Below the pieces are notes generated by a model. It made no database searches and was not told the origin of the DNA. It was given only the letters and a program-made list of their open reading frames with translations. Positions 20,783 to 54,158 of a stretch of 54,158 bases of DNA are shown piece after piece (positions within the stretch are counted from its first letter, which is position 1; each line of letters starts with the position of its first letter). The position numbers and the translations under genes were made by a program. This DNA comes from a virus (Duplodnaviria > Caudoviricetes), in the IMG/VR virus record IMGVR_UViG_3300022200_000061, positions 1 through 54,158 of that record. The stretch is one strand, 5' to 3'.

Positions 20783-20985
20783 TACTTACGTCCCGTCTTT
20801 CTACTTGGTTTCTTTGTAAACTTATTATATGAGTTGGTATAAGAACTGGCTTTACCCACCCCAGCAAAACTCTGTGTCTTGAATGAAGTGCTTGACGGTC
20901 CTTTAGGTGTAGCAATGCTCTGTGTTCCGAAATATGCTCGAACGTCCATCACATTCCCACTTTGCTTTCTGCCTGATGTTTTCAT
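20782..20985 (-). CDS. Small basic hypothetical protein (first gene of structural arm)
   Basis: RBS, stop overlaps tailspike ATG. Confidence 0.55.
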   Translation of the reverse strand: MKTSGRKQSGNVMDVRAYFGTQSIATPKGPSSTSFKTQSFAGVGKASSYTNSYNKFTKKPSRKTGRK

Positions 20986-21231
20986 TGTCCTACCTATGTC
21001 GATATCTTATTGATGAATTGTAATGAACTGTTATCGACTCACTGCGTTCGTCACAAATACTGATGGGGTTTCCAACTCTGTGGATTTCCCGGAGAAAGTT
21101 TGGAGGTGTAATGCACTATAATCACACCCCCCACACACCCCCTTGTACCCCCTACGGTATTATTGTACCGCTTGGCCCCGGTGTGTGTTGCATTGACCCT
21201 CCCTCCCTCTGACCACATTCCTATCTACTCC

Positions 21232-21244
21232 TAACCCGTTGATA
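21232..21244 (-). promoter_or_regulatory. IHF binding site
   Basis: TATCAACGGGTTA matches WATCAANNNNTTR exactly; a 1-mismatch site lies at 21467-21479. Confidence 0.55.
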
Positions 21245-21337
21245 TTAAAGGGGTTATTGTTATTAAACGCCTACGGCACACGACTCTGTTCCTATTTGTG
21301 TATGACGATAGGTGTGTAGTCCTATGAGTGGTGATGT

Positions 21338-21403
21338 TGGCACGGTTATTGATAGATGCATATATCATGCCATGTTGTGTTAGTGGTTGGCATGGTACTT
21401 GCT
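21338..21403. promoter_or_regulatory. Three sigma54 (-24/-12)-like sites
   Basis: TGGCACGGTTATTGAT (+, 21338), TGGCATGATATATGCA (-, 21372-21357), TGGCATGGTACTTGCT (+, 21388) versus consensus TGGCACG-N4-TTGCW. Confidence 0.65.
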
Positions 21404-21523
21404 ACAGGTGTGTGCGTTTCCATGTTTGGACTGTTATGTAGTGCCATTGACTGCTATTTCATGGCGTAACCTATTGAGATATATACATAAACCAAAATAG
21501 TTTGATGAATATGCGTTTTCTTG

Positions 21524-21559
21524 TTGCAACGGATGATAGCCTATGACATTGTTGGTTCA
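21524..21559 (+). promoter_or_regulatory. Putative sigma70 early promoter
   Basis: TTGCAA-N17-CATTGT-N6-A; initial transcribed ATCGAAAGGGGCACAGCG resembles T7 A1 (ATCGAGAGGGACACGGCG). Confidence 0.55.
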
Positions 21560-21593
21560 TCGAAAGGGGCACAGCGTCCTTTAGATCACCGGG

Positions 21594-21930
21594 GCGTCAT
21601 ATGCTAGCGGTGGGATAGGTTACACAGACCTTGTAGTTAGGGTATTGGGCCGGTCTATTGGTTATCGCCGTCGGTGATGATCGGGTAGAACGCCGCTAAC
21701 ACAAGCAAGTGGTTGGCCGCGGGAACGTTGATAGCCTTGCCATATGCAAGGTGTTATCATCGGCAAGTCAGCACGACTTCGCAGCACTTCCAAAAGCAAC
21801 AGAACATATGTGTGTGTTGAATGAGCGTTGGCGTTAGTTGACAATCGTTTGGCCTTGACATGGTGGGCGGTCTGACAACCTGCCCTTGATTGATTATGTA
21901 TGTTCTGCCCTCACCTTTAGCATATGACGC
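21594..21930 (+). ncRNA. Putative large structured non-coding RNA (~340 nt)
   Basis: 13-bp perfect closing helix 21594-21606/21918-21930 enclosing at least eight compatible helices; no convincing ORF. Confidence 0.6.
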
Positions 21931-21956
21931 TTATACTATCACGAAAGGAAACCGTA

Positions 21957-22142
21957 GTGTTCACTCATAAAGAATGCCCCCAAGGCTTGGTTACTGCCAA
22001 GCGTGTGCCTTTTGTCCATGTCAATGGTCGCATGACCCGTGACAATCGTGGGCGTGAGGTAGAGCTATCTTGCACTGTCAAAGGCTCAAGCACGGAACGT
22101 TTCAACACTGGCTATCCTATTGGCTTTCATAAGTGGTATTAG
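21957..22142 (+). CDS. Early hypothetical protein
   Basis: GTG after AAAGGA RBS, in frame with ORF 21924-22142. Confidence 0.55.
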   Translation: MFTHKECPQGLVTAKRVPFVHVNGRMTRDNRGREVELSCTVKGSSTERFNTGYPIGFHKWY

Positions 22143-22242
22143 CTAATCACTACGTTTGGCACTTCTCATAATGCAGGTATCTCAACTGTGTTAAGAAGTG
22201 CCAAAGGCGGCGATTAGTGCCGAAAACAGGAAAGGTATTGAT

Positions 22243-22833
22243 ATGACCAAACTCTCACTCTCGAAGATGGGCCTTGATGGCAAGGCAACTATGGCTTTTG
22301 TTGTGGACACAAACAAGCAATACACAGCTCTGTCAGTCCGCCTTCACCAGACCGCTTGTGTGGCTCTCTATCGTGCTGCCCAATTCGGTGATCCCGATGC
22401 GCTCAACATGTTCTATTCCGACCTTCGTGTGAACGATCAGACCGCATTGCGTGTTTGGGTTGGTCAGCACTCAAGCTATGTGGACCTTGACCTTGGCAGC
22501 ACTCGCAATTGGATCAAGTTTGATACCAAGAAGGGCTTCACTCTCGTCAAGGATGTGGAAAGCCATCGCAAGGACATGTTTACCGTCGAAACCAATGAGG
22601 GTGGTAAGCAGATGCTTCTTGCCCTCAAGCCCTTCTATGACAAGAATGTCAAGGACAAGGACGCCATCACTCTTGAAGTGTTGATGAACATGATGAAACG
22701 CACTGCCGACCAGATGACCAAGAAGGCCGATGCTGAAGGCATCAAGCTGCCAGCCGACGTTCTCAAGCTCACCACGTCGATGAAGAATACTGCCGCCAAG
22801 GAATTGGCCGCTATCGAACGTGTTACCGAATAG
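22243..22833 (+). CDS. Early hypothetical protein
   Basis: ATG after GGAAAGG RBS; strong codon bias. Confidence 0.75.
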   Translation: MTKLSLSKMGLDGKATMAFVVDTNKQYTALSVRLHQTACVALYRAAQFGDPDALNMFYSDLRVNDQTALRVWVGQHSSYVDLDLGSTRNWIKFDTKKGFTLVKDVESHRKDMFTVETNEGGKQMLLALKPFYDKNVKDKDAITLEVLMNMMKRTADQMTKKADAEGIKLPADVLKLTTSMKNTAAKELAAIERVTE

Positions 22834-23948: not shown

Positions 23949-24014
23949 GGGTGGGTCGTCTAATTGGTTAGGACAACTCCGGAGATAATGCAGGTTCGAC
24001 TCCTGTCCCACCCT
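23949..24014 (+). tRNA. tRNA-like RNA lacking the anticodon loop (tRNA-Glu-like body)
   Basis: Acceptor GGGTGGG/CCCACCC, D-arm GTCT-AATTGGTTA-GGAC, T-arm GCAGG-TTCGACT-CCTGT; only 15 nt between D- and T-arm; no encoded CCA. Confidence 0.75.
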
Positions 24015-24122
24015 TATAATTGCTTTGTGTGTGTCCCACTATTGTTGTGGACAGTTAAGCTGGCCACTCCTTGGGTCAGTGGGGGCACACTCATGGCAAT
24101 TATGCCCTAATGGAGAAGAAGA

Positions 24123-25592: not shown

Positions 25593-26474
25593 ATGGATGC
25601 AAAAACACTTCGTCGTGTTAGTCCATTGGTTAAGGAATACGCCAAAACCCGGTTCGTTCATGACTATCAAGATAGGAACTCCAACGCTATCAATGCGCGT
25701 GTTTCAATTGGTCTTTCAGGTAAAGCTAAACTTGATCGTGGTGCGCCATATGTATGTTATGGCAATCTGAATCGTACTGTCGATCCTGATACGAAGGCCA
25801 TTCTTCTTCAGATTCAGCCCCGTAAAGAAGCTGTTACTGAAGAGGCATTCCGCCACTACATCCATTGGGTTATTAACCTCTCCCCTTGGCGTCATGCGTT
25901 CATCAGCAAGAACATTGATCGTGTCATGCGTGATGGTGTTGTTGTCGTTGATGCTACATACAAGGGCAACACTGTCTCTGGTGGCATGATTGCACTACGT
26001 CAGGCTTGGGAAAACTACAGTGCAAACTTCCGCCACAAGGGTGTTCAAGCATGGTATGAATTGCTTGGCCAGACTGACCCTGTTGTAGCATTTGCTGCAA
26101 GCTGTTTGTTCTCTTGGGTAAATGACCATGCTGTAATCCCAACGCCAACGTTTGCTGGGCATACCCCTCTCAATCAGGATGGGTCCAACCGCCTTGACTC
26201 GTTTGTTCGTGGTAACATGGTTGATAATTCTGAACCTTGGTGTGTTGGTGCTATCCATCGTCTAGCATCTGGTGCATGGCCACCAGCAACAATGACCCCC
26301 AAATCTTTCGCACCATTCGTTCACAAGCTTGTTGAACAAATTGATAGCAAGAAGACTAGCGCCAACCCTTTTGCTGCAAGAAATGAGACTAAGGTGTATG
26401 AGCGTAACAGGCTTATTACCTTCCTTGCTGAAAACCTCCAGCCTGAATGGGATAAGTTGAATGGCACGGCGTAG
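25593..26474 (+). CDS. Hypothetical protein heading the amidoligase cluster
   Basis: 293-aa ORF with RBS. Confidence 0.75.
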   Translation: MDAKTLRRVSPLVKEYAKTRFVHDYQDRNSNAINARVSIGLSGKAKLDRGAPYVCYGNLNRTVDPDTKAILLQIQPRKEAVTEEAFRHYIHWVINLSPWRHAFISKNIDRVMRDGVVVVDATYKGNTVSGGMIALRQAWENYSANFRHKGVQAWYELLGQTDPVVAFAASCLFSWVNDHAVIPTPTFAGHTPLNQDGSNRLDSFVRGNMVDNSEPWCVGAIHRLASGAWPPATMTPKSFAPFVHKLVEQIDSKKTSANPFAARNETKVYERNRLITFLAENLQPEWDKLNGTA

Positions 26475-27153
26475 TGTTTTAATCAGTAATGGCAGTGGTG
26501 CAGGTGCTGTACGTACAATGTTTATGGAAGAGGGATGGGATATCTGTAGTGATATCGACGATGCTGATTTGGTTCAGTTCGTTGGTGGTGCAGACGTTGA
26601 CCCTGCTCTCTATGGGCATCACAAGCATCGTACTACAACCATTGACGCCAATCGTGACCTCCGTGAACAAGAGCTATACACTATGGCCCTTGATCGTGGT
26701 ATTCCTATGGCTGGTATCTGTCGTGGTGGTCAGTTCCTCAATGTCATGAATGGTGGGCTGCTCTATCAGGATGTTGATGGACATGCTATGGGCACTACAC
26801 ATGAGGCATGGCTTAAGGGCGCGCCCTTGCCTGTCAAGGTAACATCAACCCATCACCAGATGATGGAGCCTAACTACGATGCTGATGTGCGTGTACTGAT
26901 GCAAGCCAAGGCTTCGTCCGTTAAGCGTATGATGTCGAACAAGAAGAATGGCATCTATGAAACCAAGATCGTCATGAAGGATGGGTGTCAGCCCTCTGAT
27001 GTTGAAGCCCTCTACTATCCGGGTACTCGTTGCCTGTGCTTCCAGCCTCATCCAGAGTTTACGGCAGCCTATGCTCGTGAGACTCGTGAGGTGTATTTCG
27101 TCTTTATGGCTGATTACATCACAGGTGATCCGAACGACCACGTTCCATATTGA
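26461..27153 (+). CDS. Class I glutamine amidotransferase-like (peptidase C26 / PuuD-like)
   Basis: GGADVDPALYG, GICRGGQ nucleophile elbow, STHHQ, FQPHPE. Confidence 0.9.
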   Translation: MARRSVLISNGSGAGAVRTMFMEEGWDICSDIDDADLVQFVGGADVDPALYGHHKHRTTTIDANRDLREQELYTMALDRGIPMAGICRGGQFLNVMNGGLLYQDVDGHAMGTTHEAWLKGAPLPVKVTSTHHQMMEPNYDADVRVLMQAKASSVKRMMSNKKNGIYETKIVMKDGCQPSDVEALYYPGTRCLCFQPHPEFTAAYARETREVYFVFMADYITGDPNDHVPY

Positions 27154-27206
27154 GTTATGAAGTGTGGATAGTGGTAATTTTGTGAGAAAATAACGGAGAT
27201 TTTGAA

Positions 27207-27596
27207 ATGAACATGCTGTCTGTATTCCTCCTTCTGTCTGATATCGTGCCACGTCTGGCTATTTTGGGCATTATCTTGATAGTTGCTGCTCTGGCCCTCC
27301 TGTTCGTCCTGCCCAAAAATGATGAGATCGAAATGTTCTCATACGAACATGCCCCGTTTCAGGGGCTAATGAGAAAAGAGCCGTACATTGTGGGTATTAT
27401 TGGTCTCGTCTTGCTCTTCTTCACTCCAAGCAAGGAAGCCTTTCGACTAATTGCTGCCAGTCAGGTTGGCGAACAGATTATTCAGCTTGAAGAGGTGCAG
27501 GAAATTGGTGGTGAGGTTGGTGGACTGGCCAAAGATGCCATTGAACTGCTGCGCCAGCAGGTGAATAACAATCTTCCACAGAAGCCTACTGAATAG
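27207..27596 (+). CDS. Membrane protein
   Basis: Two hydrophobic segments. Confidence 0.65.
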   Translation: MNMLSVFLLLSDIVPRLAILGIILIVAALALLFVLPKNDEIEMFSYEHAPFQGLMRKEPYIVGIIGLVLLFFTPSKEAFRLIAASQVGEQIIQLEEVQEIGGEVGGLAKDAIELLRQQVNNNLPQKPTE

Positions 27597-27692
27597 GTGT
27601 AAGTGTTTTAGGCCATGTTGGGTCATCTGACATAGCTAACCTCTCTCAGCGGCCTTCTCTGTGGCCGCAATCAACCTTCTAGGAGCATATTA

Positions 27693-28103
27693 ATGACTGT
27701 TGATGTAAAAGTTGGCGATGTTGTACTAATTAAAATTGGTGTTGGGTTCAGCCTTAGTGGCAAAGCTGTCTCAATCTCTTCTGTGAACAATGAACACTTC
27801 ACTACACCTGTTGGCACTAGGCTTGGCCACTACAAGTACCCGCTCCATATTATCGAAAAGGTTGTCAAACCTCTTAACCCAACTGAAGAGGCTATCAAGC
27901 ATCTTACATCCCTTGGTTATAAGGTGGAAGAACCAACTCCGCCTCGTGAGGGTATTGGTGTTGTGTATAGTTTTCAGTTAGCTGCTCAAGACAAGGTTGT
28001 GACCGCTATTATGGACCAAAATGCGTGGGGCACCTACTACGAAAAAGATGAAAAGTATACAAAGATTGCCACAGTGAAGTGGGTTGAAGGAGAATACGTC
28101 TAA
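27693..28103 (+). CDS. Hypothetical protein, paralog of 24302-24685
   Basis: AGGAG RBS; shared C-terminal motifs. Confidence 0.7.
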   Translation: MTVDVKVGDVVLIKIGVGFSLSGKAVSISSVNNEHFTTPVGTRLGHYKYPLHIIEKVVKPLNPTEEAIKHLTSLGYKVEEPTPPREGIGVVYSFQLAAQDKVVTAIMDQNAWGTYYEKDEKYTKIATVKWVEGEYV

Positions 28104-29530
28104 TGTGCGGTTTGGTAGGTATGGCGGGTAACATTGTCGATGGGGACAAGAAGGTGTTGAAGCATCTTCTCATCTTCGATGTTCTCCGTGGTGACGATAG
28201 CACTGGTCTTGCTGTTGTCTCTGAAAAAGATGATAGTATCTCTCTTGTCAAGGAAGTGGGGGCTCCCCATAACTTGTTCCGTAAGAGCGAGTTCGATAGC
28301 AAGGGTGTGTACACCAGCCAGCGTGGTAAGGTGTTCATTGGTCACAATCGTGCAGCCACCAAGGGTGCTGTGACTAAGAAGAATGCTCATCCATTCCACC
28401 ATGGCAATGTTGTTGGTGCGCACAATGGCACACTGCGTGGTGCCTTTCGTCTTGAAAACAGCGCCAAGTTTGATGTTGATAGTGAAGCTATCTTCTACAA
28501 CCTCGCGAAGTACACTATCGAATCCACGATGGGTAATGTCGATGGTGCCTATGCACTGACTTGGTACGACAAGGACGACAACAAGGTGTATGTCATTCGT
28601 AACAACGAACGGCCCCTGTACTGGACACGTCGCACTGATTTGGACGTTATTTATTGGGCATCTGAGCCTTGGATGCTTGAGGTTGCTCTTGGTCGTTGCA
28701 GCATCAAGCATGGCGACATCGTAGAGTTTGAAAAGAATACGCTCTACAGCCTTGACGTATCCAACGTTATGCCTAGCACCTTCCGTAAGGTTGAGTGGGT
28801 TGAGAAGAAGAATGTTGAGGGCTATAAGTATAAGCCTGTGGTTCGTCATAACAACCATAACAATGGCTCTCACATCTTTAACAACCCAAGCAATGTCAAT
28901 CAGGGAGGCCGCAGTAATGTCATCCCTTTCTCTCCCACGTCGAACGGTGGCTCGACTCAATCTGCTGGCCGGACGGCGACTGAACTATCTGTCATGAAGC
29001 AGATGGAAGGACAGACAATCCGGTTTCGTCTTTCCGGGGTTAAGGTGGGGGTAAGCAAAAGTCGCTATCTCTCTGCATTTCCTGACAACCCTCTTGCTGA
29101 TTGGGATATTCGCATCTATGGCCACAAGAATAGTTTGTGGGGCAATTGGGTGGATGCAGCTAAGGGCAAGAACCTCTTCTCGGGCAAAATCAAGAAGGTT
29201 GTTGACACGTGGCACTCGGGTGGCAAGCGTGAGACCTACCTCCTTATCGACCTCCGCTCAATTGAGAAACAGGTTGAGACAGAGGTTGAAGAGGAACTCC
29301 CGAAGAGTAACACGGTAAGTGATACTGATTGGTACGAAGGTTTTGGTGGCCGTTTCCTTACTCGTGATGAGTGGGATAACGCTACTAAGGATGGTTGTGC
29401 CAACTGTACAGCCGATGCTGATCCCGACGACCAACTCCTGACATTCTTTAGCCACAATGAACATTTCTGTGGCAAGTGTGCGGATGCTAATACCAAGGCT
29501 GAATCTAACCCACGTTCTAATCTCAACTAA
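28103..29530 (+). CDS. Class II (Ntn) glutamine amidotransferase with C-terminal Zn ribbon
   Basis: MCGLVG N-terminal Cys, RGDDSTG, GHNRAAT, NAHPF, HNGTL, DSE; C-terminal CxxC...CxxC. Confidence 0.9.
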   Translation: MCGLVGMAGNIVDGDKKVLKHLLIFDVLRGDDSTGLAVVSEKDDSISLVKEVGAPHNLFRKSEFDSKGVYTSQRGKVFIGHNRAATKGAVTKKNAHPFHHGNVVGAHNGTLRGAFRLENSAKFDVDSEAIFYNLAKYTIESTMGNVDGAYALTWYDKDDNKVYVIRNNERPLYWTRRTDLDVIYWASEPWMLEVALGRCSIKHGDIVEFEKNTLYSLDVSNVMPSTFRKVEWVEKKNVEGYKYKPVVRHNNHNNGSHIFNNPSNVNQGGRSNVIPFSPTSNGGSTQSAGRTATELSVMKQMEGQTIRFRLSGVKVGVSKSRYLSAFPDNPLADWDIRIYGHKNSLWGNWVDAAKGKNLFSGKIKKVVDTWHSGGKRETYLLIDLRSIEKQVETEVEEELPKSNTVSDTDWYEGFGGRFLTRDEWDNATKDGCANCTADADPDDQLLTFFSHNEHFCGKCADANTKAESNPRSNLN

Positions 29531-29547
29531 ACATTACGGAGTGTTAA

Positions 29548-30633
29548 ATGACTGAATTTCTTATCGGCGCTGATCCAGAATTGTTTGTTCGTGATCGTAA
29601 GGGCGAGCTTGTCTCCGCTCATGGTATGATCCCCGGCACTAAAGCCAATCCCCATCAGGTTGAGGGCGGTGCGGTTCAGGTTGATGGTATGGCTTTGGAG
29701 TTCAATATCAATCCAGCCAGCACCTATCAGGAATGGGAAGCCAACATCACTGGTGTAATGGCCCAGCTTAAGGAAATGATCCCAACGGGCTACACCTTTG
29801 ACTTCTCCCCTGTCGCTGAATTTGGTGCTGACTTCATCAAGACACAGCCTGAAGAGGCTCGTGACCTTGGTTGTGACCCTGATTTTAACCCATACAATAG
29901 TAATCAGCCATTCCCCCGCCCTGATGCCAGCACTTCGTTCCGTACTGCGTCTGGTCATGTCCATATTGGTTGGACAAAAGATCAGTCAATTGATGACCCC
30001 GATCATTGGGAAGCTTGCAGTATGATGGCACGTCAGCTTGACCTTGCCCTTCTTCCTCACTCGTTCATCTGGGATCGGGATACGAAGCGTAGCTCACTTT
30101 ATGGCAAGCCCGGTGCTTTCCGCCCTAAGTCTTATGGTGTTGAGTATCGTTCTCTGTCCAATGTCTGGGTGGACAATGCTGACACTCGCTACATTGTGTA
30201 CCATCGTACACTGAACGCTGCTCAGATGCTGTTGTCTGGTCGTCGTATGTATGACTATGACAGCCATCGTGATCCTGTCATTTATCACAAGAAGGGTGAT
30301 CTCAAGTCTGTGAAGATGTGGTCGGACCATCTGCATGCTGCTTTTGATCGGTATGACCCTGATGGGATTATTCGTGCCAAGATGGCTACCATCTACAATC
30401 AGAACAAAACCCCTGTAAAAAGCTCGATAGTCAAGCCTAAGACTAAGACAAATGATGCGGAGTTTAATCCAGCGCTCCAGTGGAATCTGGCTGTGCGAGA
30501 GGCACGAGAACGTATCCGTGAACGTGCAGCCATTGGTGTCCCCGTAGCTGCTGGCATTGGTCGTGGCCCTCGTCGTCGTGGCGCAGGTCAGATGGCTGTA
30601 CCTGCCGCGATTCTTGATGACGATTTCCTGTAA
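29548..30633 (+). CDS. phiEco32-like COOH-NH2 ligase (type 2)
   Basis: IGADPELF, DGMALEFN, GCDPDFN, GHVHIG, YGVEYRSLSN. Confidence 0.88.
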   Translation: MTEFLIGADPELFVRDRKGELVSAHGMIPGTKANPHQVEGGAVQVDGMALEFNINPASTYQEWEANITGVMAQLKEMIPTGYTFDFSPVAEFGADFIKTQPEEARDLGCDPDFNPYNSNQPFPRPDASTSFRTASGHVHIGWTKDQSIDDPDHWEACSMMARQLDLALLPHSFIWDRDTKRSSLYGKPGAFRPKSYGVEYRSLSNVWVDNADTRYIVYHRTLNAAQMLLSGRRMYDYDSHRDPVIYHKKGDLKSVKMWSDHLHAAFDRYDPDGIIRAKMATIYNQNKTPVKSSIVKPKTKTNDAEFNPALQWNLAVREARERIRERAAIGVPVAAGIGRGPRRRGAGQMAVPAAILDDDFL

Positions 30634-30642
30634 GGAGTAGCT

Positions 30643-31224
30643 ATGAAACACTACGACACTGTAGAGTATGCCCAGTCACGATTGGTTGATACTATCGTAC
30701 GTCTTGGCAACAAGCCAATTTTGGTACGGGCTGTTGGCGGTAATAACCGCAACATCATCGTTCACTACGAAGAGGTGTTGACTACTGTTGGTGGTATGAA
30801 AGAGGTGGCTCTTACTGAGTTGAACCTTGACCCTGTACCACTGGGCTATGTTAACTTCGATGGCCTTGCTCACTACCTTACACGAGCCCCAATGCGTCGT
30901 GACTGGCGGCAGGGCCTTCGTATGCTCAACATTATGGTCCCCAATGGGGGGCAGCCTCGTGCTATCCCCTATCGCACAATCGCCAACACAATCATTGGCA
31001 AGTACCCCACCTTCAACTCAGCTCTTGATAAGCTGAACAAAACCACTAATTCCTCACGGGCATTGGCATTCTGTCGTGACTTTGCTATGACACGAGAGAA
31101 GCTGTGCTATAAGGGCGTCTTTGATGTTGGTAGTGTCAACATGGACAATGGCAACATTGAAATCAATCGCAAGTTCGATTGGGTCCGAGAGGCCCTTGAA
31201 CAGAATATGGAGAAAGCAGCATGA
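30643..31224 (+). CDS. Hypothetical protein of amidoligase cluster
   Basis: Strong RBS; PLGYVN and RDWRQGL; embedded in cluster. Confidence 0.7.
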   Translation: MKHYDTVEYAQSRLVDTIVRLGNKPILVRAVGGNNRNIIVHYEEVLTTVGGMKEVALTELNLDPVPLGYVNFDGLAHYLTRAPMRRDWRQGLRMLNIMVPNGGQPRAIPYRTIANTIIGKYPTFNSALDKLNKTTNSSRALAFCRDFAMTREKLCYKGVFDVGSVNMDNGNIEINRKFDWVREALEQNMEKAA

Positions 31225-32075
31225 AGCCAATGAAGCAAGTCCTACGGTTGGACCCTTCAACATACCGTGATGCCTTGTATGGTGTAGAGATTGAGGTGGA
31301 GGGGAACAACCTCCCCACCCGCCTCAGCAGCTCTGTGTGGCGTATTGAGCGGGATGGCAGCCTCAAGTCTGCGGAAGCCTACGAGTATGTGACACCACAC
31401 CCACTGTCATTGGCAGGTGTACGGTCCTCGTTGGACTATCTTGGTGCTGCTTACGCAACGTCCCGCACTTCTGTTGACGAAAGCATTCGTGCTGGTGTAC
31501 ATGTCCATATGAATGTGCAGGACTGGAACATCAAACAGTTGTTCACCTTCACCACCATGTACTATGTCCTCGAAGACATCCTTACTCGTTGGTGCGGCCC
31601 GGCCCGTGAGGGCAATCTGTTCTGCCTTCGTTCTAAGGACGCTGAGTTTGTTCTGTTCCGTGTCCTTGAGGCATTGAACAACAAGAACCTTCGTCTGTTG
31701 AAGGACGATACCATCCGCTATTCCTCCCTCAACTACTGCTCACTGTTCAAGTATGGCAGTATTGAGTTCCGTGGGATGCGTGGTACAGGTGATCTGGATG
31801 CCATCTACAACTGGGTTCAGATCATTAACGACCTCCGTGAATCGTCTTTGAAGTTTGACGATCCGGTGTCTGTCATCTCCACGATGAGTGGTGATGGTGG
31901 TCGGGCATTCCTCGACCGTGTTCTCCCCAACACTGCCAAGTTGCTTGGGGATGTCAACGACGCTGATGAGTTGATCAGTGAGTCTACCCGTCGTGTTCAG
32001 ATGCTTGCTTTTGGTGTCAACTGGGCATCAATGGGTGGCAAAAGTGTAAACATCTTTAAGGAAGAGGTTTGGTAA
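31221..32075 (+). CDS. Putative amidoligase (COOH-NH2 ligase)
   Basis: YGVEIEVEG, DGSL, GVHVHMN, SIEFR. Confidence 0.88.
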   Translation: MKPMKQVLRLDPSTYRDALYGVEIEVEGNNLPTRLSSSVWRIERDGSLKSAEAYEYVTPHPLSLAGVRSSLDYLGAAYATSRTSVDESIRAGVHVHMNVQDWNIKQLFTFTTMYYVLEDILTRWCGPAREGNLFCLRSKDAEFVLFRVLEALNNKNLRLLKDDTIRYSSLNYCSLFKYGSIEFRGMRGTGDLDAIYNWVQIINDLRESSLKFDDPVSVISTMSGDGGRAFLDRVLPNTAKLLGDVNDADELISESTRRVQMLAFGVNWASMGGKSVNIFKEEVW

Positions 32076-32470
32076 TGACTTATGTATTTGTATATGGTAC
32101 GCTGAAGCAGCGTCATGGTAATCATCGTGTCCTTGGTGACGCTGTGTTTATTGGCGAAGGTGCAACAGTAAGTGATGAGTTCACTATGTTCAACGGAGGT
32201 TTCCCTTTTGTATCCACTGGTTTTGATGAACATCGTGGCCGTGTATTCGGTGAACTTTATGAAACGGATGATGAAGGCATCCTTCGTAACCTCGACCGAC
32301 TTGAAGGCGTCCCTTATCTATACATCAAGAGGGAGGTTGATGTTACGACAGTGGACGGACAGCAGCACCGGGCAACGCTCTACGTGGCGTCGGAAGAGTC
32401 TAACCGTCGAATGAGTCATCGTGAACAGATTGTACCACGTGGCGGTACTAAGATTCTGGAGTGGAATTGA
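32075..32470 (+). CDS. Gamma-glutamylcyclotransferase (AIG2-like)
   Basis: VFVYGTLK, GELY, LDRLEG..Y. Confidence 0.9.
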   Translation: MTYVFVYGTLKQRHGNHRVLGDAVFIGEGATVSDEFTMFNGGFPFVSTGFDEHRGRVFGELYETDDEGILRNLDRLEGVPYLYIKREVDVTTVDGQQHRATLYVASEESNRRMSHREQIVPRGGTKILEWN

Positions 32471-33225
32471 TGCACGTATATTCTTACAATCAGTATAGCG
32501 CAGGTGCTACAGCCCTAGCACGTGCTGCAGGAGCTAAGAAGGTGAAGCATGAGGGTAGCCGTTTTGTTGGCGGGCCTCATAAGACTGTCATCAATTGGGG
32601 CAGTAGCTCTGTACCCCCAGAGGTTGGCCGTTGTCGTGTGATTAACCTGCCTGAGATTATTGGGCGTGTTACAAACAAGCTTACATTCTTTACCAACTTC
32701 AACATCCCTGAGCTTGTCCCTTACACCACCAGTGTTGATCAGGTACGTGAATGGTTGAACGAGGGTAAGACTGTGGTGGCCCGTAAGAAGCTCACAGGGC
32801 ACTCAGGAGAGGGTATTGTCATTCTTGAAGGGACTGATGCCGAAATTGTACCAGCCCCGCTGTACACCCTCTACAAGCCAAAGAAGGATGAGTACCGTAT
32901 CCACGTAGTTCGTACTGCGAATGGGTATCAGGTGTTTGATCGCCAGCGTAAGGCTCGTGATCGTTCTAACGACAATCCTAACTGGAAGGTACGGAATCAT
33001 GAAAACGGTTTTGTATATGCTCGTGATGGCATTGATCCTCCACGATGTGTTGAGGAAAGCGCTATCAAGATTCTTGAAGAGACAGGTCTTGACTTCGGTG
33101 CAGTGGACATCATCTATAACGACAAGGAAAAGAAAGCCTACGTCCTAGAAATCAACACAGCACCGGGCCTTACAGGCACTACACTGGAACGCTATACAGC
33201 TATGGTGAAGGAGAATTTTGAATGA
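32470..33225 (+). CDS. ATP-grasp peptide ligase (RimK/GshB-like)
   Basis: GHSGEGI, EYRIHV, LDFGAVDII, VLEINTAPG. Confidence 0.9.
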   Translation: MHVYSYNQYSAGATALARAAGAKKVKHEGSRFVGGPHKTVINWGSSSVPPEVGRCRVINLPEIIGRVTNKLTFFTNFNIPELVPYTTSVDQVREWLNEGKTVVARKKLTGHSGEGIVILEGTDAEIVPAPLYTLYKPKKDEYRIHVVRTANGYQVFDRQRKARDRSNDNPNWKVRNHENGFVYARDGIDPPRCVEESAIKILEETGLDFGAVDIIYNDKEKKAYVLEINTAPGLTGTTLERYTAMVKENFE

Positions 33226-37162: not shown

Positions 37163-37624
37163 ATGAGTATTGTAGAAACACACTACCGAGAGAGCTACAG
37201 TAAGTTGGTTAAGATTGCCCGTGGACGTGTGGGAGACTACTCCCTACCACTGGCAGAGGAAGCGGTACAGGAGGCGTTTACTAGAGCGCTGAAGTACCTC
37301 CCAGCATATAACCCAAGGGTGCCGTTTGATAAATGGTTTATGAGCATTCTCTATAATGCTATCAACAACATCAAACGTCAGGAAATGGATGCAGGTATGG
37401 TATACGAAGAAGAAGAAGAAGTAAATTACCATAACGCTAATGACATCCTATTCACCAAGGAGATCAGTGATGCACTAAGCCGATGTAGTATTCGTGATCA
37501 GGAAATCCTGAACGCATACTTCTTCTATGGCTTTAAGTCACGAGAGGTAGCCGAGATTACCGGCACGAACCATTCAGTTGTTCGTGATGTGGTTCGGACC
37601 TTTCGCAAGAAGGTGAGAGATTAG
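37163..37624 (+). CDS. Phage RNA polymerase sigma factor (ECF-like)
   Basis: Region 2 AEEAVQEAF...FDKW...N; region 4 HTH GFKSREVAEITG. Confidence 0.85.
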   Translation: MSIVETHYRESYSKLVKIARGRVGDYSLPLAEEAVQEAFTRALKYLPAYNPRVPFDKWFMSILYNAINNIKRQEMDAGMVYEEEEEVNYHNANDILFTKEISDALSRCSIRDQEILNAYFFYGFKSREVAEITGTNHSVVRDVVRTFRKKVRD

Positions 37625-45686: not shown

Positions 45687-46145
45687 ATGAAAATTCAGGG
45701 ATCACCCTGTCCCATATGTAACCGAGCTAGAGAATATGTGTCGGAGGTAAACGCTGCCAAAGGAAAGGGTAAGCCATGTCGATCTTGTGCCAACTCAATT
45801 AAGGGTGGTGGGGTCGGATGGAGTCCTCTTTGTGCAGACTGTGGGATAAGGGCTAAAACAGGTAAACACAACTCGCAGTGTAAAGAGTGCCATAATAAAC
45901 GTAGTAGTAAGTATCACAAAGAAGTTTATCGTTGGGCTAAGTACGGCCTGAATGGGCCAATAGCCATGGCCGAATGTGAAATTTGCAAAGCAGTTGAAGA
46001 CCTAGTTATTGATCATTGCCATGACACACAAGTAGTAAGGGGTGTGCTGTGTCGTACATGCAATATGGCTCTAGGGCTGCTTAAAGAAAATAAAAACAAT
46101 GTAAGGAGTGCCTTAAAATATGCAGAACGAACATTCAACAATTGA
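45687..46145 (+). CDS. Endonuclease VII-family protein (probable free-standing homing endonuclease)
   Basis: CEIC...IDHCH...VRGVLCRTCNMALG plus N-terminal Cys pairs. Confidence 0.8.
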   Translation: MKIQGSPCPICNRAREYVSEVNAAKGKGKPCRSCANSIKGGGVGWSPLCADCGIRAKTGKHNSQCKECHNKRSSKYHKEVYRWAKYGLNGPIAMAECEICKAVEDLVIDHCHDTQVVRGVLCRTCNMALGLLKENKNNVRSALKYAERTFNN

Positions 46146-47235
46146 TTTGCCCAAAGACATTTTGAGTCAGGTCACTATTTTTGGCAAGTATGCCCGACAC
46201 ATCCCATCACTCAACCGTCGTGAGACTTGGGCTGAGATTATTGAACGAAACAAGCTGATGCATCAGCAGAAGTATCCCAACATTGCTGACCTGATTGATG
46301 AGGTATATGATCGCTCGGTACTGACGAAACACATCCTTCCTTCTATGCGGTCCCTACAGTTCGCAGGAGTCCCTATTGAACGTAATCCTTCTCGCATTTA
46401 CAATTGTGCGTATCTCCCTATTGAGGACACTGATGCGTTTGCTGAGATCATGTTTCTACTTCTTGGTGGAACAGGGGTCGGCTATTCTGTACAAGATCGA
46501 CATGTATCGAAACTACCTGTTGTCTGCGGACCTAAGGGCAAGCCACGTCGCTATGTCATCGGAGATTCAATCGAAGGCTGGGCAGATGCTGTTAAAGTTC
46601 TTATTGAAGCATATTTCAATGGCAAGGCCGGAGTAAATTTTGACTATGGAGACATCCGAGAAAAAGGAAGTGAGCTTGTCACCTCAGGAGGCAAAGCTCC
46701 GGGACCAGAACCACTACGAGAATGCCTCAACCGAGTACGAGATGTTCTTGAGGGAAGTATCGGACGGAAACTCAGCCCAATCAATGCTCATGACATCGCT
46801 TGTTATCTCGCTGATGCTGTACTTGCTGGGGGTATCCGTCGGGCTGCTATGATTAGCCTGTTCTCGATTGACGATGAAGAAATGATTGGAGCTAAGAGTA
46901 GTTCGGTTGTATCCAACCTCATAAGTCGAGAGGATGTAGATAATAAAACCATAAAGCTTTGTATCGAACAAGGTGGTATTGTCTATAACGATATTCTTGT
47001 CAAGCGGGCCAAGGAAACAGATAAGTATTGGGACATTGAGCAGTATGAGCGAGACGGAACATTCGGATGGTGGGTCACGAACCCACAGCGATCACGAGCT
47101 AATAACAGCGTTGTCCTCCTACGAGGGCACGTCAGTGAGGGACGTTTTAAAGAGCTTTGGGACCGAGTTCGAGCTTCGGGTGCGGGTGAGCCGGGGTTCT
47201 ACTGGACGAACAATCTCGATTGGGGCACTAACCCT
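46120..47235 (+). CDS. nrdJ: Class II (AdoCbl-dependent, monomeric-type) ribonucleotide reductase, exon 1
   Basis: RRETW, LPSMRSLQF, YNCAY, GGIRRAAMI, GEPG; ends ...WGTNP. Confidence 0.9.
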
Positions 47236-47313
47236 GGTTTCTAAACAGGGGTTATAAAACGAATTGAATTCAGGGGATATCCAGAACGGACAATCCTGAG
47301 CTAAGCTTTTATT

Positions 47314-47341
47314 CTCACAAACAGGTGATTTCTAAGGTATA
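47314..47341 (+). promoter_or_regulatory. Intron-internal phage-sigma promoter for the HNH gene
   Basis: CTCACAAACA-N12-GGTATA 31 nt before the HNH ATG. Confidence 0.72.
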
Positions 47342-47372
47342 TGTATGTAGGGACTAACCAACAGGAGCTACA

Positions 47373-47702
47373 ATGAATACCTATAACTACGAAATTAACG
47401 AAGACGGGTCTATTATATCCAAGCACACTGGCAATCAAATCTATGTGGCTACGTGCAAGAAGGGGTATAGCAGAGTGAGGTTGAAACATGCTGATGGTGG
47501 TAAGCCACACTTGGTGCATAGGCTTATTGCCTTAAAGTTTATACCTAATCCCGACAACCTTCCTCAAGTTAATCACAAAGACGGTAACAAAAGTAATAAC
47601 CGCGCTGATAACTTAGAGTGGGTGACTAATAAACGTAACTGCGAACATGCTGTAGCCAACGGGCTTTATCATGTCACCAGAAAAGCGTGTGAGAATAATT
47701 GA
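47373..47702 (+). CDS. Intron-encoded HNH homing endonuclease
   Basis: VHRLIA..FIPNP...VNHKDGNKSNN...NLEW; AGGAG RBS. Confidence 0.9.
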   Translation: MNTYNYEINEDGSIISKHTGNQIYVATCKKGYSRVRLKHADGGKPHLVHRLIALKFIPNPDNLPQVNHKDGNKSNNRADNLEWVTNKRNCEHAVANGLYHVTRKACENN

Positions 47703-47868
47703 AAGTGCAACGACTATCCCGAAAGGGAGTAGGATCAAGTGATCCGAAGCGGTTCGCTCGGCATAGCCGATGATGATATAGTCTGATCTGCATAGGAATA
47801 TGCAGCAGCTTCGTAACTAACAGGGCAACGAAGCGGGGTAAGTTTAACGAACTTATCTGAACACCATG

Positions 47869-48798
47869 TGTTGTGAAATCGCACTCAAGCCCTACCAATT
47901 CTGTAACCTTACTGAAATCAATACCTCTAACATCGTTGATCAGGATGACTTTAACCAACGAGCCAGCGATGCAGCATTCCTTGGCACTCTTCAAGCAGGG
48001 TACACAAACTTCCACTACTTGCGTTCTATCTGGAAGCGAACGACTGAAGAGGATGCTCTTGTCGGTGTCGGACTAACAGGTATTGCCTCTAACGCCATTA
48101 AGGAACTTGATGAGCTTGAGGCTGCTGATAAGGCCATGATGACTAACCGTCTGGTCGCATCTATGATTGGAGTTAATGTTGCCTCACGAGTTCTTACAGT
48201 TAAGCCAAGTGGAACAAGTTCTCTGGTGGTTGGCAGTAGTAGCGGTATTCATGCTTGGCATGATGATTACTATGTCCGCCGTATGCGGTTCAACAAAGAT
48301 GAAGCGATCTTTAAGTATCTCGCCCGAACAATCCCAGCTCTGGTTGAGGATGAACACTTCAACCCCGAAAAGATGGGCGTGGTTGGTATCCCACAGGCAG
48401 CTCCTAAAGGTGCTACGGTTCGTACAGAGTCTGCTCTGGATTTGTTGGAACGCACTCGTCGCTACAATGTTAATTGGGTGGGGGCTGGTCATCGCTCTGG
48501 TGATAACCGAAACAACGTCTCTGTAACCGTGTCCCTAAAGGACAATGAATGGGGTGAAGTCGGTCAGTGGATGTGGGACAATAAGGATACCTACAATGGT
48601 ATCAGCGTTCTTCCATATGATGGTGGCTCATACATTCAGGCCCCGTTTGAAACTATCACTGAGGAACAGTACAACGAGATGGTAAAGCATCTTACAGCTA
48701 TTGACCTTACCAAAGTTAATGAGGTACATGATGAGACAAACCTTGCCGCTGAAGCAGCCTGCGCTGGCGGAGCTTGTGAGATTGGCGATTTTGTATGA
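47869..48798 (+). CDS. nrdJ: Class II ribonucleotide reductase, exon 2
   Basis: CCEI, QFCNL, VKPSGTSS, C-terminal ACAGGACEI; spliced product 681 aa. Confidence 0.9.
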   Translation, partial: CCEIALKPYQFCNLTEINTSNIVDQDDFNQRASDAAFLGTLQAGYTNFHYLRSIWKRTTEEDALVGVGLTGIASNAIKELDELEAADKAMMTNRLVASMIGVNVASRVLTVKPSGTSSLVVGSSSGIHAWHDDYYVRRMRFNKDEAIFKYLARTIPALVEDEHFNPEKMGVVGIPQAAPKGATVRTESALDLLERTRRYNVNWVGAGHRSGDNRNNVSVTVSLKDNEWGEVGQWMWDNKDTYNGISVLPYDGGSYIQAPFETITEEQYNEMVKHLTAIDLTKVNEVHDETNLAAEAACAGGACEIGDFV

Positions 48799-50939: not shown

Positions 50940-51932
50940 TTATGCTGTGGGGGAAACAGTGGCCAGAGAAACGGTCAGATTGCTCGTTCCCGCAAACGTG
51001 AGCTGGTAAGTCGTGTTGCCCAGAGCGTCGATAACCTGCGTGGTATCGCCGTTGGTCGTCACGTTGGAAAGGGTTGTGGTGCCGCCCTCGTTAAAGCGAC
51101 GGCCACAGTTGCCAGCGGTGCGGCCCTCAATCACAACGCGGCAATTGTAGGAAGCCGCAGGGGCCTCAACGTTCCATGTGGCAACCCGCGTTCCGCTGCC
51201 TGGAACGACCACGATCTTGCCATCGACAACGCTGATACCGTCACCAGTGAATGTGATCAGCTCGCTCGAAATACCGCCAAGGAGGTCAGTTGGCGCGGTG
51301 TAGGCATCGGTCGCGCCATCGGCCACAGCCAGAGACAGAATGTTCTGCTCAATGGCAATCTTGCTGGCCTGATAGAAGTGGGTTCCGTCCTTGAGCAGAT
51401 ACTCTGGAACCTTATCGGCTGCTACCGAGGCAATAGCCGCAGGGCTGCCGTCGCTGATCTGGAGGAATGGGCGCCAGTCCCAGAACGCCCCGGCATTGAT
51501 GGATTTGATATGCGCCTCAATCAGCAGGGCGTCGGATAGCTCTTGCGTGGAATTGGCATCGCGACGGCTGGGCCAGCCGATCTTGCGCCAGCCGGTCAGC
51601 CAACTATTTATGCGAGTATAGGCGTCGAGAACGTCCTGAATGTCGGTGTATTGCGTATCGTTTAGCCCGCCATCCCAGACAAACGTTGGGCGGTCAGGCT
51701 CGTTGACTGCATATAGCGCGGTTTCAATATCGAAGATGGAAAGACCGCCACTGCCGTATTGGGTGATGCCAGGATAGCCGAGCAGGATTGCGCCGGTCTT
51801 TGGATCTGATGCCACTGTGCCGTTGGGGTAGCTATCGCCGCCAATGACCATAGGTTGGGGGGTGTAGCTTGAGCCCCCACCCGCTCTTCGGGTGTTTGGT
51901 AGCGATAGCGAAAGGCCGAGCATTGTACCCAT
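50940..51932 (-). CDS. SGNH hydrolase with C-terminal beta-sandwich; N-terminus of prophage-type allele
   Basis: GDSY, GSGG, GGLND, DGTH blocks; visibly more GC-rich than the phage genes. Confidence 0.85.
   Translation of the reverse strand: MGTMLGLSLSLPNTRRAGGGSSYTPQPMVIGGDSYPNGTVASDPKTGAILLGYPGITQYGSGGLSIFDIETALYAVNEPDRPTFVWDGGLNDTQYTDIQDVLDAYTRINSWLTGWRKIGWPSRRDANSTQELSDALLIEAHIKSINAGAFWDWRPFLQISDGSPAAIASVAADKVPEYLLKDGTHFYQASKIAIEQNILSLAVADGATDAYTAPTDLLGGISSELITFTGDGISVVDGKIVVVPGSGTRVATWNVEAPAASYNCRVVIEGRTAGNCGRRFNEGGTTTLSNVTTNGDTTQVIDALGNTTYQLTFAGTSNLTVSLATVSPTA
51549..51908. repeat. Imperfect direct repeat, copy 2 (copy 1 at 1-360)
   Basis: See copy 1. Confidence 0.97.
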
Positions 51933-52094
51933 TAGAGGGGCATCCAGGCGTCATTAATCAGAACGAAGCGCTTGCCGTCCTCGGGGGTCACTGTTGGCAA
52001 AGACAGGGCAAATGCCAGAATGCGGCGGATGGGGTGCATACTGTCTCTCCATATGAGAAAAGCCCTCGGCTGGTGGGCCAAGGGCTGGAATGAG

Positions 52095-52328
52095 TTAGGC
52101 AGATGGCGCCGAAAGTTCTGGGTATTTCATCCGCTCATCGCCTTCCGGCCAACCGAGTTTCTGATGCTCAGCCCCAGCAAGCGAGCAGGCGATCTCAAAC
52201 GCCAGTATCTCGCTGTCAAATTCGCCCTTGGTTTCGCTGCCGGAGGACCGTTCGCCTTGCTCGTAACGAGTGACGACGAAGCGCTCGACCTTGCGGATGC
52301 GATATTCAACCTTGGTTAGTTCAGTCAT
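52095..52328 (-). CDS. Hypothetical protein
   Basis: AAAGGA RBS, followed by terminator-like hairpin at ~52057-52087. Confidence 0.65.
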   Translation of the reverse strand: MTELTKVEYRIRKVERFVVTRYEQGERSSGSETKGEFDSEILAFEIACSLAGAEHQKLGWPEGDERMKYPELSAPSA

Positions 52329-53028
52329 AGCAGTTTCCTTTGGAAAGCGATGGCCGCAGCCACCTATTCAGCAGGATTGCCGAATGCAAAAAATCCCCTC
52401 CTGTTAGGGAGAGGCTGGGGAGGATTGGTGTCGAGCGGGCCGGGACCCGAACCCGGATGGCAGGAACTACCCCTGCCGCCGTTTCTGGCTTGCCTGCGCC
52501 GTCAGCCGCCGCTCGATTTCGTTGCCCATTGGGCTTGTTAGGTTGGCGGGGTAAGTCTTCACCCCGAGTGCGTTCCGGTCCACAGCTCCAGCGTTACGCC
52601 ATCGCCGCCCTACGCCATCTCTACCCGCCACGGGGCCTGGATCGTAAGCCCATCGGGCTAATTCCTTTGAGGCGGCTGGCCTTCCACCAACGTAAGGACG
52701 GACTATACGTCACCGTAATCCGCGCCTCAAACTCTAATTCCTCTCCGCACCTGCCAAGGCTATTGCAGCCTCTAGTAGATCGCGGGCATTGTCTCCGCCT
52801 ATGGCATCAACGGCTAGTTCGCAGAATGCAGCGAACATGGTTGCAACCTCGGCGGGGTCGTCCTCGTCTAGCTCGACAAGCTCAAGCTCGTCCATATCAA
52901 ATTCGCGCGTCTGGCTCATGGAAGCCTCGCAGAATTTAGGGCGCAAAAAAGAAAGCGCCGAACTTTGGGGGTTGGCAGGGTCCGACCGGCGAATACCGCG
53001 CAGAACATCGGATCATCCGCCAACCACT

Positions 53029-53640
53029 CTAGGCTGCTTCGCTTTGGTCGTCAACCACAATCAGGTTATCAACATCAGTGAATTCCACCGGTGTTTCTCG
53101 CCCATTGTCGCCAAGCACTACAGCCTTAACCGTACCCTTCTTGGTCACAGACAGGATGCGGGCAAGGACGCGCTGGTCTGCCGTCATTGGCGCCGTGATA
53201 TGACGCCCGACCTGCATTGAGCCGAGCTTGGCCCGACGCTCAGCCTGGCGCACATTTGGCCGCCCCTTGCGCAGTTCAGTCCGAACCGAGCGAGTGTTGC
53301 CATCCTCGTATGCCATAGAACGCTCAGCGCGCATGATTGAGGCCACTTTCTCCCTCGCGAGGGTATAGGGCCGCCCATCGACGTAAAGCACGCCCTTAAC
53401 CCCGTTGCACTGGCGGAGCGCATACCAGTTTTCAGGGCCAGCAAAGCGCATGAAAATGTACCCGGTCAAAAGCGGGCGGCGCGTGATGATTGGTTCCTTG
53501 GTCCGGTGGTGGGTCCGCACCTTCGCCAGCCGTGGCATATGAGCCCGAAAGCCGTGGCGCCGGATTTCCGCAACCGCCTTGCGCTCGCAGTTTGGGTTTG
53601 TCTGTACGATGTACCAATGGTTTTGCGTTTGCCCGTTCAT
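53029..53640 (-). CDS. NusG-family transcription antitermination protein (phage-type paralog)
   Basis: NGN domain WYIVQTNPNCERK...PLLTGYIF...GVKGVL; KOW-like C-terminus. Confidence 0.8.
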   Translation of the reverse strand: MNGQTQNHWYIVQTNPNCERKAVAEIRRHGFRAHMPRLAKVRTHHRTKEPIITRRPLLTGYIFMRFAGPENWYALRQCNGVKGVLYVDGRPYTLAREKVASIMRAERSMAYEDGNTRSVRTELRKGRPNVRQAERRAKLGSMQVGRHITAPMTADQRVLARILSVTKKGTVKAVVLGDNGRETPVEFTDVDNLIVVDDQSEAA

Positions 53641-53665
53641 AGTAGCCCCTATGGTTGGAAATGGA

Positions 53666-54037
53666 TTAGGCGGAATGCTTCTTCTTGAGAACTCGTGCCT
53701 CGCCCATGCCAAGGCGGCGCTGGACTTCTTCGACAGAGATTTTCGCGTTTGCGTCCCGCACCGACTGAATGCGCTTTCCCTCAAAGTCTGGCAGCGGCAC
53801 CGGAAAATTACAGACCCACTCCCCGAACAAGCCGATAGCGCGCATGGCTATGAACGGCAGAAGGATCAGAAACACCGGCGTGTAAAACCAGATGCCGACC
53901 ATCAGCCAAAAGGCATTCCGGTTTATCTCGCCCGCTATCTCTGGGCAGGCATGGGCAATTCGGATGTTGCGAATGTAGGTTCTGCGGATCACGATAAACC
54001 GCCAAGGGATGCCGTCAGTTAGCCAGTGCCAGCTCAT
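53666..54037 (-). CDS. Hypothetical membrane protein
   Basis: RBS and hydrophobic segment. Confidence 0.5.
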   Translation of the reverse strand: MSWHWLTDGIPWRFIVIRRTYIRNIRIAHACPEIAGEINRNAFWLMVGIWFYTPVFLILLPFIAMRAIGLFGEWVCNFPVPLPDFEGKRIQSVRDANAKISVEEVQRRLGMGEARVLKKKHSA

Positions 54038-54158
54038 CTCACTGCCCCTTGTGATCGGATGGGGGGAGAGACTTCTTGCGCGGGTAAACGAGCATCGCCA
54101 TCAAGAACGCTAGAATGCCGGTCCAGATGATTTCGCCTCGATAGGCGTCTATCCAGAT

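Follow-up and report, generated by a model that had tools for sequence, protein, structure and literature searches.

A conserved multi-helix RNA domain of an uncatalogued family predicted at the head of the early genes of a VpV262/CW02-like podovirus

What is encoded by a stretch of phage DNA that holds no credible gene, whose two ends are complementary to each other, and that lies just ahead of the first early genes? The window analyzed here is the whole of an IMG/VR virus record of 54,158 bp, which is complete-looking. Its large terminase shares ~70% identity with the enzymes of Salinivibrio phage CW02, of phages like Pseudomonas phage PA11 and of Vibrio phages, and the phage is a VpV262/CW02-like podovirus. 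Portal, capsid, tail and terminase genes run leftward from 20782, while primase-helicase, DNA polymerase, ribonucleotide reductase, ThyX and an amidoligase cluster are encoded rightward from ~21957. The two divergent gene arms are divided by an ORF-poor region of 1.4 kb, which contains the structured element and within which the cumulative GC skew turns. No phage RNA polymerase gene was found among the ORFs scanned, and a small sigma-70-family protein is encoded at 37163-37624. Our comparative analysis shows that positions 21592-21932 (+ strand, ~340 bases) encode a conserved multi-helix RNA domain whose family is uncatalogued.

Several other features of the window were recorded. The block GAGAAAGTTTGGAGG..AATGCA..C-rich run..TGTACCCC at 21084-21165 is kept in all nine aligned relatives, including distant ones without the RNA element. 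On the side where it lies, several related contigs stop no more than a few kb from the terminase gene, and the block may mark a genome terminus or be a signal for packaging or of a late promoter. The cluster at 26461-33225 includes glutamine amidotransferase, aminotransferase, COOH-NH2 ligase, amidoligase, gamma-glutamyl cyclotransferase-like and ATP-grasp genes, a kind of gene set linked to peptide or base modification in phages. The ribonucleotide reductase gene (46120-48798) is present as two ORFs, one matching the first half and the other the second half of a single PHROG profile, with an HNH_3 endonuclease ORF (47373-47702) between them. It appears to be split by a homing-endonuclease insertion, and no intron model matched at this gene in the Rfam scan. 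The last 3 kb (51000-54158) has a G+C content of 57-58%, compared with ~47% elsewhere, and encodes a NusG-domain protein on the - strand (53029-53784); this segment may have been acquired as a module, stem from a host or be the chimeric end of an assembly.

The initial annotation, made from the letters of the window, had described a multi-branched RNA with no credible ORF, and every helix sequence that it quoted was found in place. The stretch has no ORF longer than 42 aa on the + strand or 60 aa on the - strand, and in all five alignable homologs each of the six frames contains at least three stops, so that there is no conserved open frame. The element ends 24 nt 5' of the first small ORF. 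Its closing helix, P1, ends at 21932, 13 nt short of the AAGGA at 21945-21949, and thus leaves the ribosome-binding site uncovered. No promoter or terminator belonging to the element itself was found, and no terminator-like site was seen within 21559-22200. Nor did the folds obtained show an alternative terminator/anti-terminator pairing, of the kind that the expression platform of a riboswitch-like leader may use.

Minimum-energy folding of the + strand of 21559-21935 gave -141.8 kcal/mol (z -4.25, none of 100 shuffles as good), and the - strand of the same stretch gave z -2.17 (1 of 100 as good). With the closing helix included (21590-21934) the score was z -4.33, compared with z -1.45 (5 of 100 shuffles as good) for the interior alone (21611-21911). 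The comparison with shuffles that the initial annotation had suggested as a check is therefore favorable for the whole stretch and not for the interior. Thermodynamics supports little beyond the long helix, and since the energy signal comes mostly from that helix, the case for the element rests on comparison with relatives.

Such relatives were not found by direct searches. BLAST of 21300-22200 and tblastn of the 196-aa protein encoded downstream both gave no match among GenBank phages. The exact 21-nt arm pattern had no match in IMG/VR, and single-protein scans of IMG/VR with a 211-aa ORF and with the amidotransferase found none. Among 80 terminase-anchored IMG/VR loci, most of which stop short of the early region, there was no BLAST match to the element. 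Using as search seed an alignment (A1) of 51 homolog sequences of the 196-aa protein, we identified two IMG/VR and seven JGI metagenome loci, one contig being common to both sets. In all six distinct loci whose upstream flank measures 100 nt or more (L083, L085, L087, L088, L089 and L091) the element lies 5' of the 196-aa gene, 30-570 nt apart; L086 and L090, with less than 60 nt of flank, were left out of this synteny count. The nhmmer E-values were 1.9e-29 for L087, 4e-12 for L085, 1.9e-9 for L088 and 6e-4 for L083. The 5' arms of L083 and L088 turned out to lie upstream of where the first alignment had put them, and insertions lengthen these copies to ~400 nt and ~660 nt, respectively. In L089 and L091 the arm sequences and their position are kept and the interior is unrecognizable. 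Together with the window this gives seven sequences in total, five of which are alignable for the interior.

Each genome record contains one copy of the element, and its position is syntenic in phages whose neighboring protein is only 38-63% identical. A ~90% relative in the marine run X5, left out of the covariation counts, provides a contig that matches the window over 21593-22142 and carries unrelated sequence to the left; its homology thus starts at the first P1 pairs. Taken over the longer sequence, identity is 60-73% for the element, compared with 65-72% for the neighboring coding DNA and 26-29% for the preceding leader. Degenerate patterns of the 3' domain recovered only the L083 contig from IMG/VR. 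The single match among GTDB genomes (L093) was rejected as chance, being AT-rich coding DNA with no P1 arms. The covariance model R1, run over 91 sources (895,091 bases), found nothing beyond its five training sequences and L093.

The two ends of the element are joined by P1, which comprises 20-22 pairs in the window and is formed by the following arms:

21592-21614, + strand: 5' arm of P1, containing the invariant GCGUCAUAUGC; paired in all seven minimum-energy folds
21908-21932, + strand: 3' arm of P1; homology to the relatives ends here

As the initial annotation had described, 21594-21606 and 21918-21930 are perfectly complementary over 13 nt with an imperfect extension, which the repeat finder placed at 19 nt with 89% matches. 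The motif GCGUCAUAUGC has no second occurrence in the window, and each arm holds the palindrome GCATATGC. In the seven-sequence alignment A5, P1 has 18 pairs with 92.9% of cells paired. Shuffles reach 83.3%, none of the 500 being as high, and slid partners 31-59%. Five of the pairs show compensatory change, and the inner part of P1 covaries. The outer 11 bp are sequence-invariant, even in L089 and L091 with their differing interiors, except for one C-G to U-A change in L088. The L088 copy also has a terminator-like hairpin with a second copy of the arm motif just before P1 (77-103 of that locus) and a ~300-nt insertion rich in GGA-containing hairpins (130-435). A CsrA-type sponge, an idea taken from these GGA hairpins, was dropped because the copy in the window is without them.

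For the interior we used the five-sequence alignment A6, from which RNAalifold gave a structure of 88 pairs in 14 helices. Of its 427 cells 88.1% are paired, compared with 72.3% in shuffles (0 of 500 as high) and 35-42% with slid partners, controls that are inflated by the structure having been derived from the same five sequences. Relatedness alone can beat shuffles, yet the slid controls keep that relatedness and are far lower. Compensatory change was found in 48 of the 88 pairs, in an alignment whose central region aligns poorly, and the pairings are thus maintained by compensatory changes, in agreement with the covariation in homologs that the initial annotation had put forward as a check. 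The cells contain 83 G-U and 13 A-C combinations, and since G-U pairs outnumber A-C to this extent, the RNA corresponds to the + strand; read on the - strand, 71.7% of the cells of the same pairs are paired. Both the covariation and the G-U bias bear out the proposal of a non-coding multi-helix RNA, read from the + strand, ahead of the early genes. The parts of the interior with comparative support are:

21659-21683, + strand: hairpin H5, TTATCGCC/GGTGATGA (21659-21668 with 21674-21683); 8 of 9 pairs compensatory
21763-21782, + strand: hairpin H10/H11, AAGTC/GACTT (H11, 21765-21769 with 21775-21779); 4 of 5 H11 pairs compensatory
21794-21799, + strand: unpaired AAGCAA preceding the 3' domain; kept in four of five aligned sequences
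21800-21907, + strand: 3' domain closed by H12 (21800-21812 with 21895-21907); 10 of 12 pairs compensatory, 88.1% of cells paired
21814-21854, + strand: hairpin H13, UUGAAUGA with UCGUUUGG (21814-21832 with 21837-21854); 18 pairs, 95.6% of cells paired
21854-21859, + strand: unpaired CUUGAC; invariant in all five sequences
21865-21885, + strand: optional hairpin GGGCGG...CUGCCC; window and L088 only, with a G-U to G-C change

The layout is a variable 5' and central part followed by a conserved 3' domain, both inside P1. The 3' domain consists of a 12-bp helix around the G-U-rich 18-bp hairpin H13, the unpaired CUUGAC and the optional hairpin. Ten of the 18 pairs of H13 are compensatory, and its base is rich in G-U, the invariant base being half G-U. 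All five copies score 71-78 bits with the covariance model R1. The purine-rich stretch 3' of P1 is conserved. A pseudoknot scan among the conserved unpaired columns gave nothing convincing.

The inner helices of the initial annotation fared unevenly. Its hairpins TTATCGCC/GGTGATGA and AAGTC/GACTT correspond to H5 and H11 and are supported, and about half of all the inner helices that it proposed are not. GGGCGGT/ACCTGCCC is seen in the window and in L088; it is deleted in L087, L085 and L083 and is thus optional. AGACC/GGTCT, the long-range AACGCC..AACACA/TGTGTT..GGCGTT helix, AAGTG/CACTT, GCCG/CGGC and the TGATAGCC hairpin are not conserved. Jointly these five have 67.7% of cells paired in the five-sequence alignment, compared with 63.2% in shuffles, 12 of 500 of which reached that level. 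The long-range helix competes with the well-paired H13.

No known RNA family was recognized, as had been suggested from the sequence. With the Rfam 15 covariance models, among them those for tmRNA, RNase P, 6S, riboswitches, introns, GOLLD, ROOL and HEARO, we found no match in the element when the whole window was searched at gathering score, and none in 20783-22250 at E up to 10. The eight related loci at E up to 0.1 gave only tRNAs, located elsewhere. RNase P-like motifs were dropped as a candidate, no Rfam model matching, and full-text literature searches returned no title naming this RNA.

Among characterized systems, the early-transcript RNase III sites of phages are similar in that a long duplex lies in the leader just before the first early gene and further long intergenic hairpins occur in the same operon. 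As in T7 and lambda, the duplex lies 3' of tandem early promoters, which are candidates here, and host polymerase is relied on. The phage sites, such as that before T7 gene 0.3 and the lambda N-leader hairpin, are single hairpins of some tens of nt, whereas the duplex of the element closes a multi-helix core of 300-660 nt and is invariant in sequence, and its cleavage is only proposed. In the precursors of 16S and 23S rRNA, distant flanks pair over ~20 bp or more and bracket a large structured RNA. The element resembles these processing stalks in its ~20-bp duplex of distant flanks around a structured RNA, its tandem promoters and its leader; unlike them it brackets a small RNA, and there is no relation in sequence or family.

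Two sets of RNAs from phages and viruses invite comparison. GOLLD and ROOL, Rfam families that are also the subject of a cryo-EM preprint (10.1101/2024.12.08.627333), are likewise large multi-helix phage non-coding RNAs with peripheral insertions of variable size, and tRNA genes occur nearby in the loci that carry homologs of the element. The element differs from them in having no covariance-model match, in being smaller and in always occupying the same site within an operon leader. From IMG/VR, candidate structured viral RNAs were identified by covariation by Fremin, Bhatt and Kyrpides (2023; PMC10690425). Their motifs are 29-151 nt long, were required to match at least three IMG/VR regions and are in some cases 'consistently positioned upstream of genes'. 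The data source and the covariation in viral intergenic regions are shared with our analysis; the element is set apart by its length of 300-660 nt and the occurrence of its 3' domain in one other IMG/VR contig, and a sub-motif of it may overlap with theirs.

The initial annotation had placed a T7-A1-like promoter directly upstream of the RNA, and this was not borne out. Conservation begins exactly at P1, with no conserved block directly upstream in the seven loci (alignment A9), and the X5 relative has unrelated sequence left of 21593. The only nearby sigma-70-like site is TTGAGA-16-AATAGT at 21474-21501, and the five sigma-70-like sites in the region compare with 5.6 expected from shuffles. 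No site with at least 9 of 12 matches was found in 21502-21593, and none lies at a constant distance from the element across the seven loci. Further upstream we identified motifs of another type:

21338-21352, + strand: sigma-54-type variant TGGCACG-N4-TTGA, the first of two tandem rightward copies; one mismatch
21388-21402, + strand: sigma-54-type motif TGGCATG-N4-TTGC, candidate early promoter; exact consensus match
21415-21591, + strand: non-conserved leader from candidate promoter to element; 26-29% identity to L087 and L083

The -24/-12 consensus of sigma-54 promoters is TGGCAYG-N4-TTGC, with GG and GC elements 10 nt apart; transcription starts 11-12 nt downstream and requires an activator ATPase. 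The match at 21388-21402 is the only exact one in the window on either strand, and the block is 87% conserved in L089 and L084 and also present in L087 and L083. In L087 and L083 the homolog of the motif at 21338-21352 is the leading member of a tandem set of three. Three tandem copies are present in L087 (1523-1772), L083 (2022-2241), L059 (1208-1260, - strand) and L040 (56-260), and two in L004/L082 (L004 218-363, - strand). In L083, L087, L089, L091 and L059, where the downstream genes could be read, all copies point to the early genes, the L091 copy having one extra base of spacing. The window motifs form an inverted repeat (21338-21402) with a TGCCA copy between them, possibly an operator. 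In place of the leader at 21415-21591 the X5 relative has a different sequence, and the element lies ~190 nt 3' of the conserved motifs; if these fire, the element would start ~180 nt into the transcript. Full-text literature searches returned no report, by title, of sigma-54-type early promoters in phages, and tandem sigma-54 promoters, if that is what these are, would be an unusual start of early transcription for a lytic phage.

Downstream of P1 the early operon begins with the following features:

21957-22142, + strand: first small ORF, 61 aa from GTG, with AAGGA 8 nt upstream
22143-22217, + strand: intergenic hairpin with 24-nt arms, from the inverted-repeat search
22243-22833, + strand: gene for the 196-aa early protein, always 3' of the element; 56 metagenome homologs, most of them from Logan assemblies, none named

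The 61-aa ORF is conserved at the DNA level in the X5 relative and L087 and belongs to no Pfam or PHROG family. The hairpin at 22143-22217 is not conserved in the X5 relative. A second intergenic hairpin of the early operon lies at 24016-24103, the arms of the two being 22-24 nt, and both are possible further processing sites. At 23949-24014 there is an Rfam tRNA match of 45 bits that was not called by ARAGORN, and stronger tRNA matches of 82 nt occur in a similar place in L083 (4600-4681), L087 (4259-4340) and L091 (6173-6255). The 196-aa protein has no Pfam family and no Foldseek match in the PDB at E <=0.001. VIA-align returned generic helical hairpins only (Z <=8.2 over 57 residues), and the ESM Atlas unnamed viral clusters only. 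The gene is absent from the records of all five other relatives, four of which are at least 90% complete, and the element is inherited together with it.

With a probability that we put somewhat short of even, we favor the reading that the element is a processed structured RNA domain in the leader of the early operon, with P1 as a recognition or processing stalk that releases the core. An RNase III-type nuclease specific for double strands would recognize and process P1; the cut would free a core of ~300 nt from the early transcript, and the early mRNA would keep only a short leader. Through its invariant unpaired nucleotides the core might then bind the 196-aa protein or a host factor, and it could act after release or only in cis. 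An RNase III-type stalk is suggested by the length of P1, by its place before the first gene and by the two further hairpins with arms of 22-24 nt. P1 is a near-continuous duplex of about two helical turns, long enough for the RNase III substrate that the initial annotation had envisaged, cleavage itself being a proposal. The arms are invariant while the interior is replaceable, which suggests that the duplex itself is read by something. RNase III is not known to need an invariant duplex sequence, and the reader of P1 may therefore be other than RNase III. The invariant unpaired bases in a conserved core suggest that a partner binds there. The terminator-like hairpin before P1 in L088 fits poorly with simple read-through from upstream.

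The same position would also suit a purely cis-acting leader, in which the fold stays on the early mRNA and nothing is released, either as a shield of the long untranslated leader against Rho and ribonucleases or as a sensor or operator of early expression, to which the 196-aa protein, for example, might bind. In every locus the element is part of the 5' leader ahead of the first early genes, it has no promoter or terminator of its own that we could find, and it is co-inherited with the 196-aa protein, which the records of five other relatives lack. We give a purely cis-acting leader well under an even chance: P1 stops before the ribosome-binding site and leaves it uncovered, no alternative terminator/anti-terminator pairing was seen, and a mere shield needs neither invariant unpaired nucleotides nor an invariant 11-bp duplex.

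The invariant arms around a replaceable interior (L089 and L091) could instead be explained at the level of DNA, the arms being inverted protein-binding sites of a looping operator pair, a replication origin or a miniature mobile element with exchangeable cargo. The palindrome GCATATGC in each arm and the turn of the GC skew in the intergenic region are in line with this, as are the terminal inverted repeats for a mobile element, and the - strand of L089 also folds well (z -4.47). We consider a DNA-level element improbable, since the interior covaries with an excess of G-U over A-C that only a + strand RNA explains, and the inner part of P1 covaries as well. Moreover, there is one copy per genome, no target-site duplication or direct repeat was found at the flanks in alignments A5 and A9, and the place is the same in all loci although the neighboring protein is so diverged. 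That the fold has no function, being the by-product of a chance long inverted repeat with similarity due to shared ancestry, is very improbable in our judgment: the interior is no more stable than shuffles, the sequences are few and related sequences can beat shuffle controls, but slid partners reach less than half of the 88% pairing observed, 48 pairs carry compensatory change, and the element can still be aligned, unlike the leader that flanks it.

A more far-reaching version, which we regard as unlikely, is a cassette class of large phage RNAs in which a sequence-invariant clamp of 11-12 bp surrounds interchangeable structured cores, two unrelated ones having been seen; the cassette would be excised from an immediate-early transcript driven by sigma-54-type promoters and act in trans, perhaps as a particle with the 196-aa protein, in host takeover or counter-defense. 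The initial annotation had likewise conjectured a first early transcript made on DNA entry, possibly a host-takeover factor or anti-defense decoy. The element sits where a phage wholly dependent on host polymerase begins its program, and it therefore probably acts in the first minutes of infection. Judged by sequence comparison, the element is a real, conserved and previously uncatalogued structured RNA. Few structured RNAs are large and have a conserved core, and time and again such RNAs have opened up new biochemistry; the invariant closing duplex provides a simple experimental handle. Even if P1 should prove to be a mere processing stalk around a stabilizing fold, the element would be a clean new RNA family for the databases.
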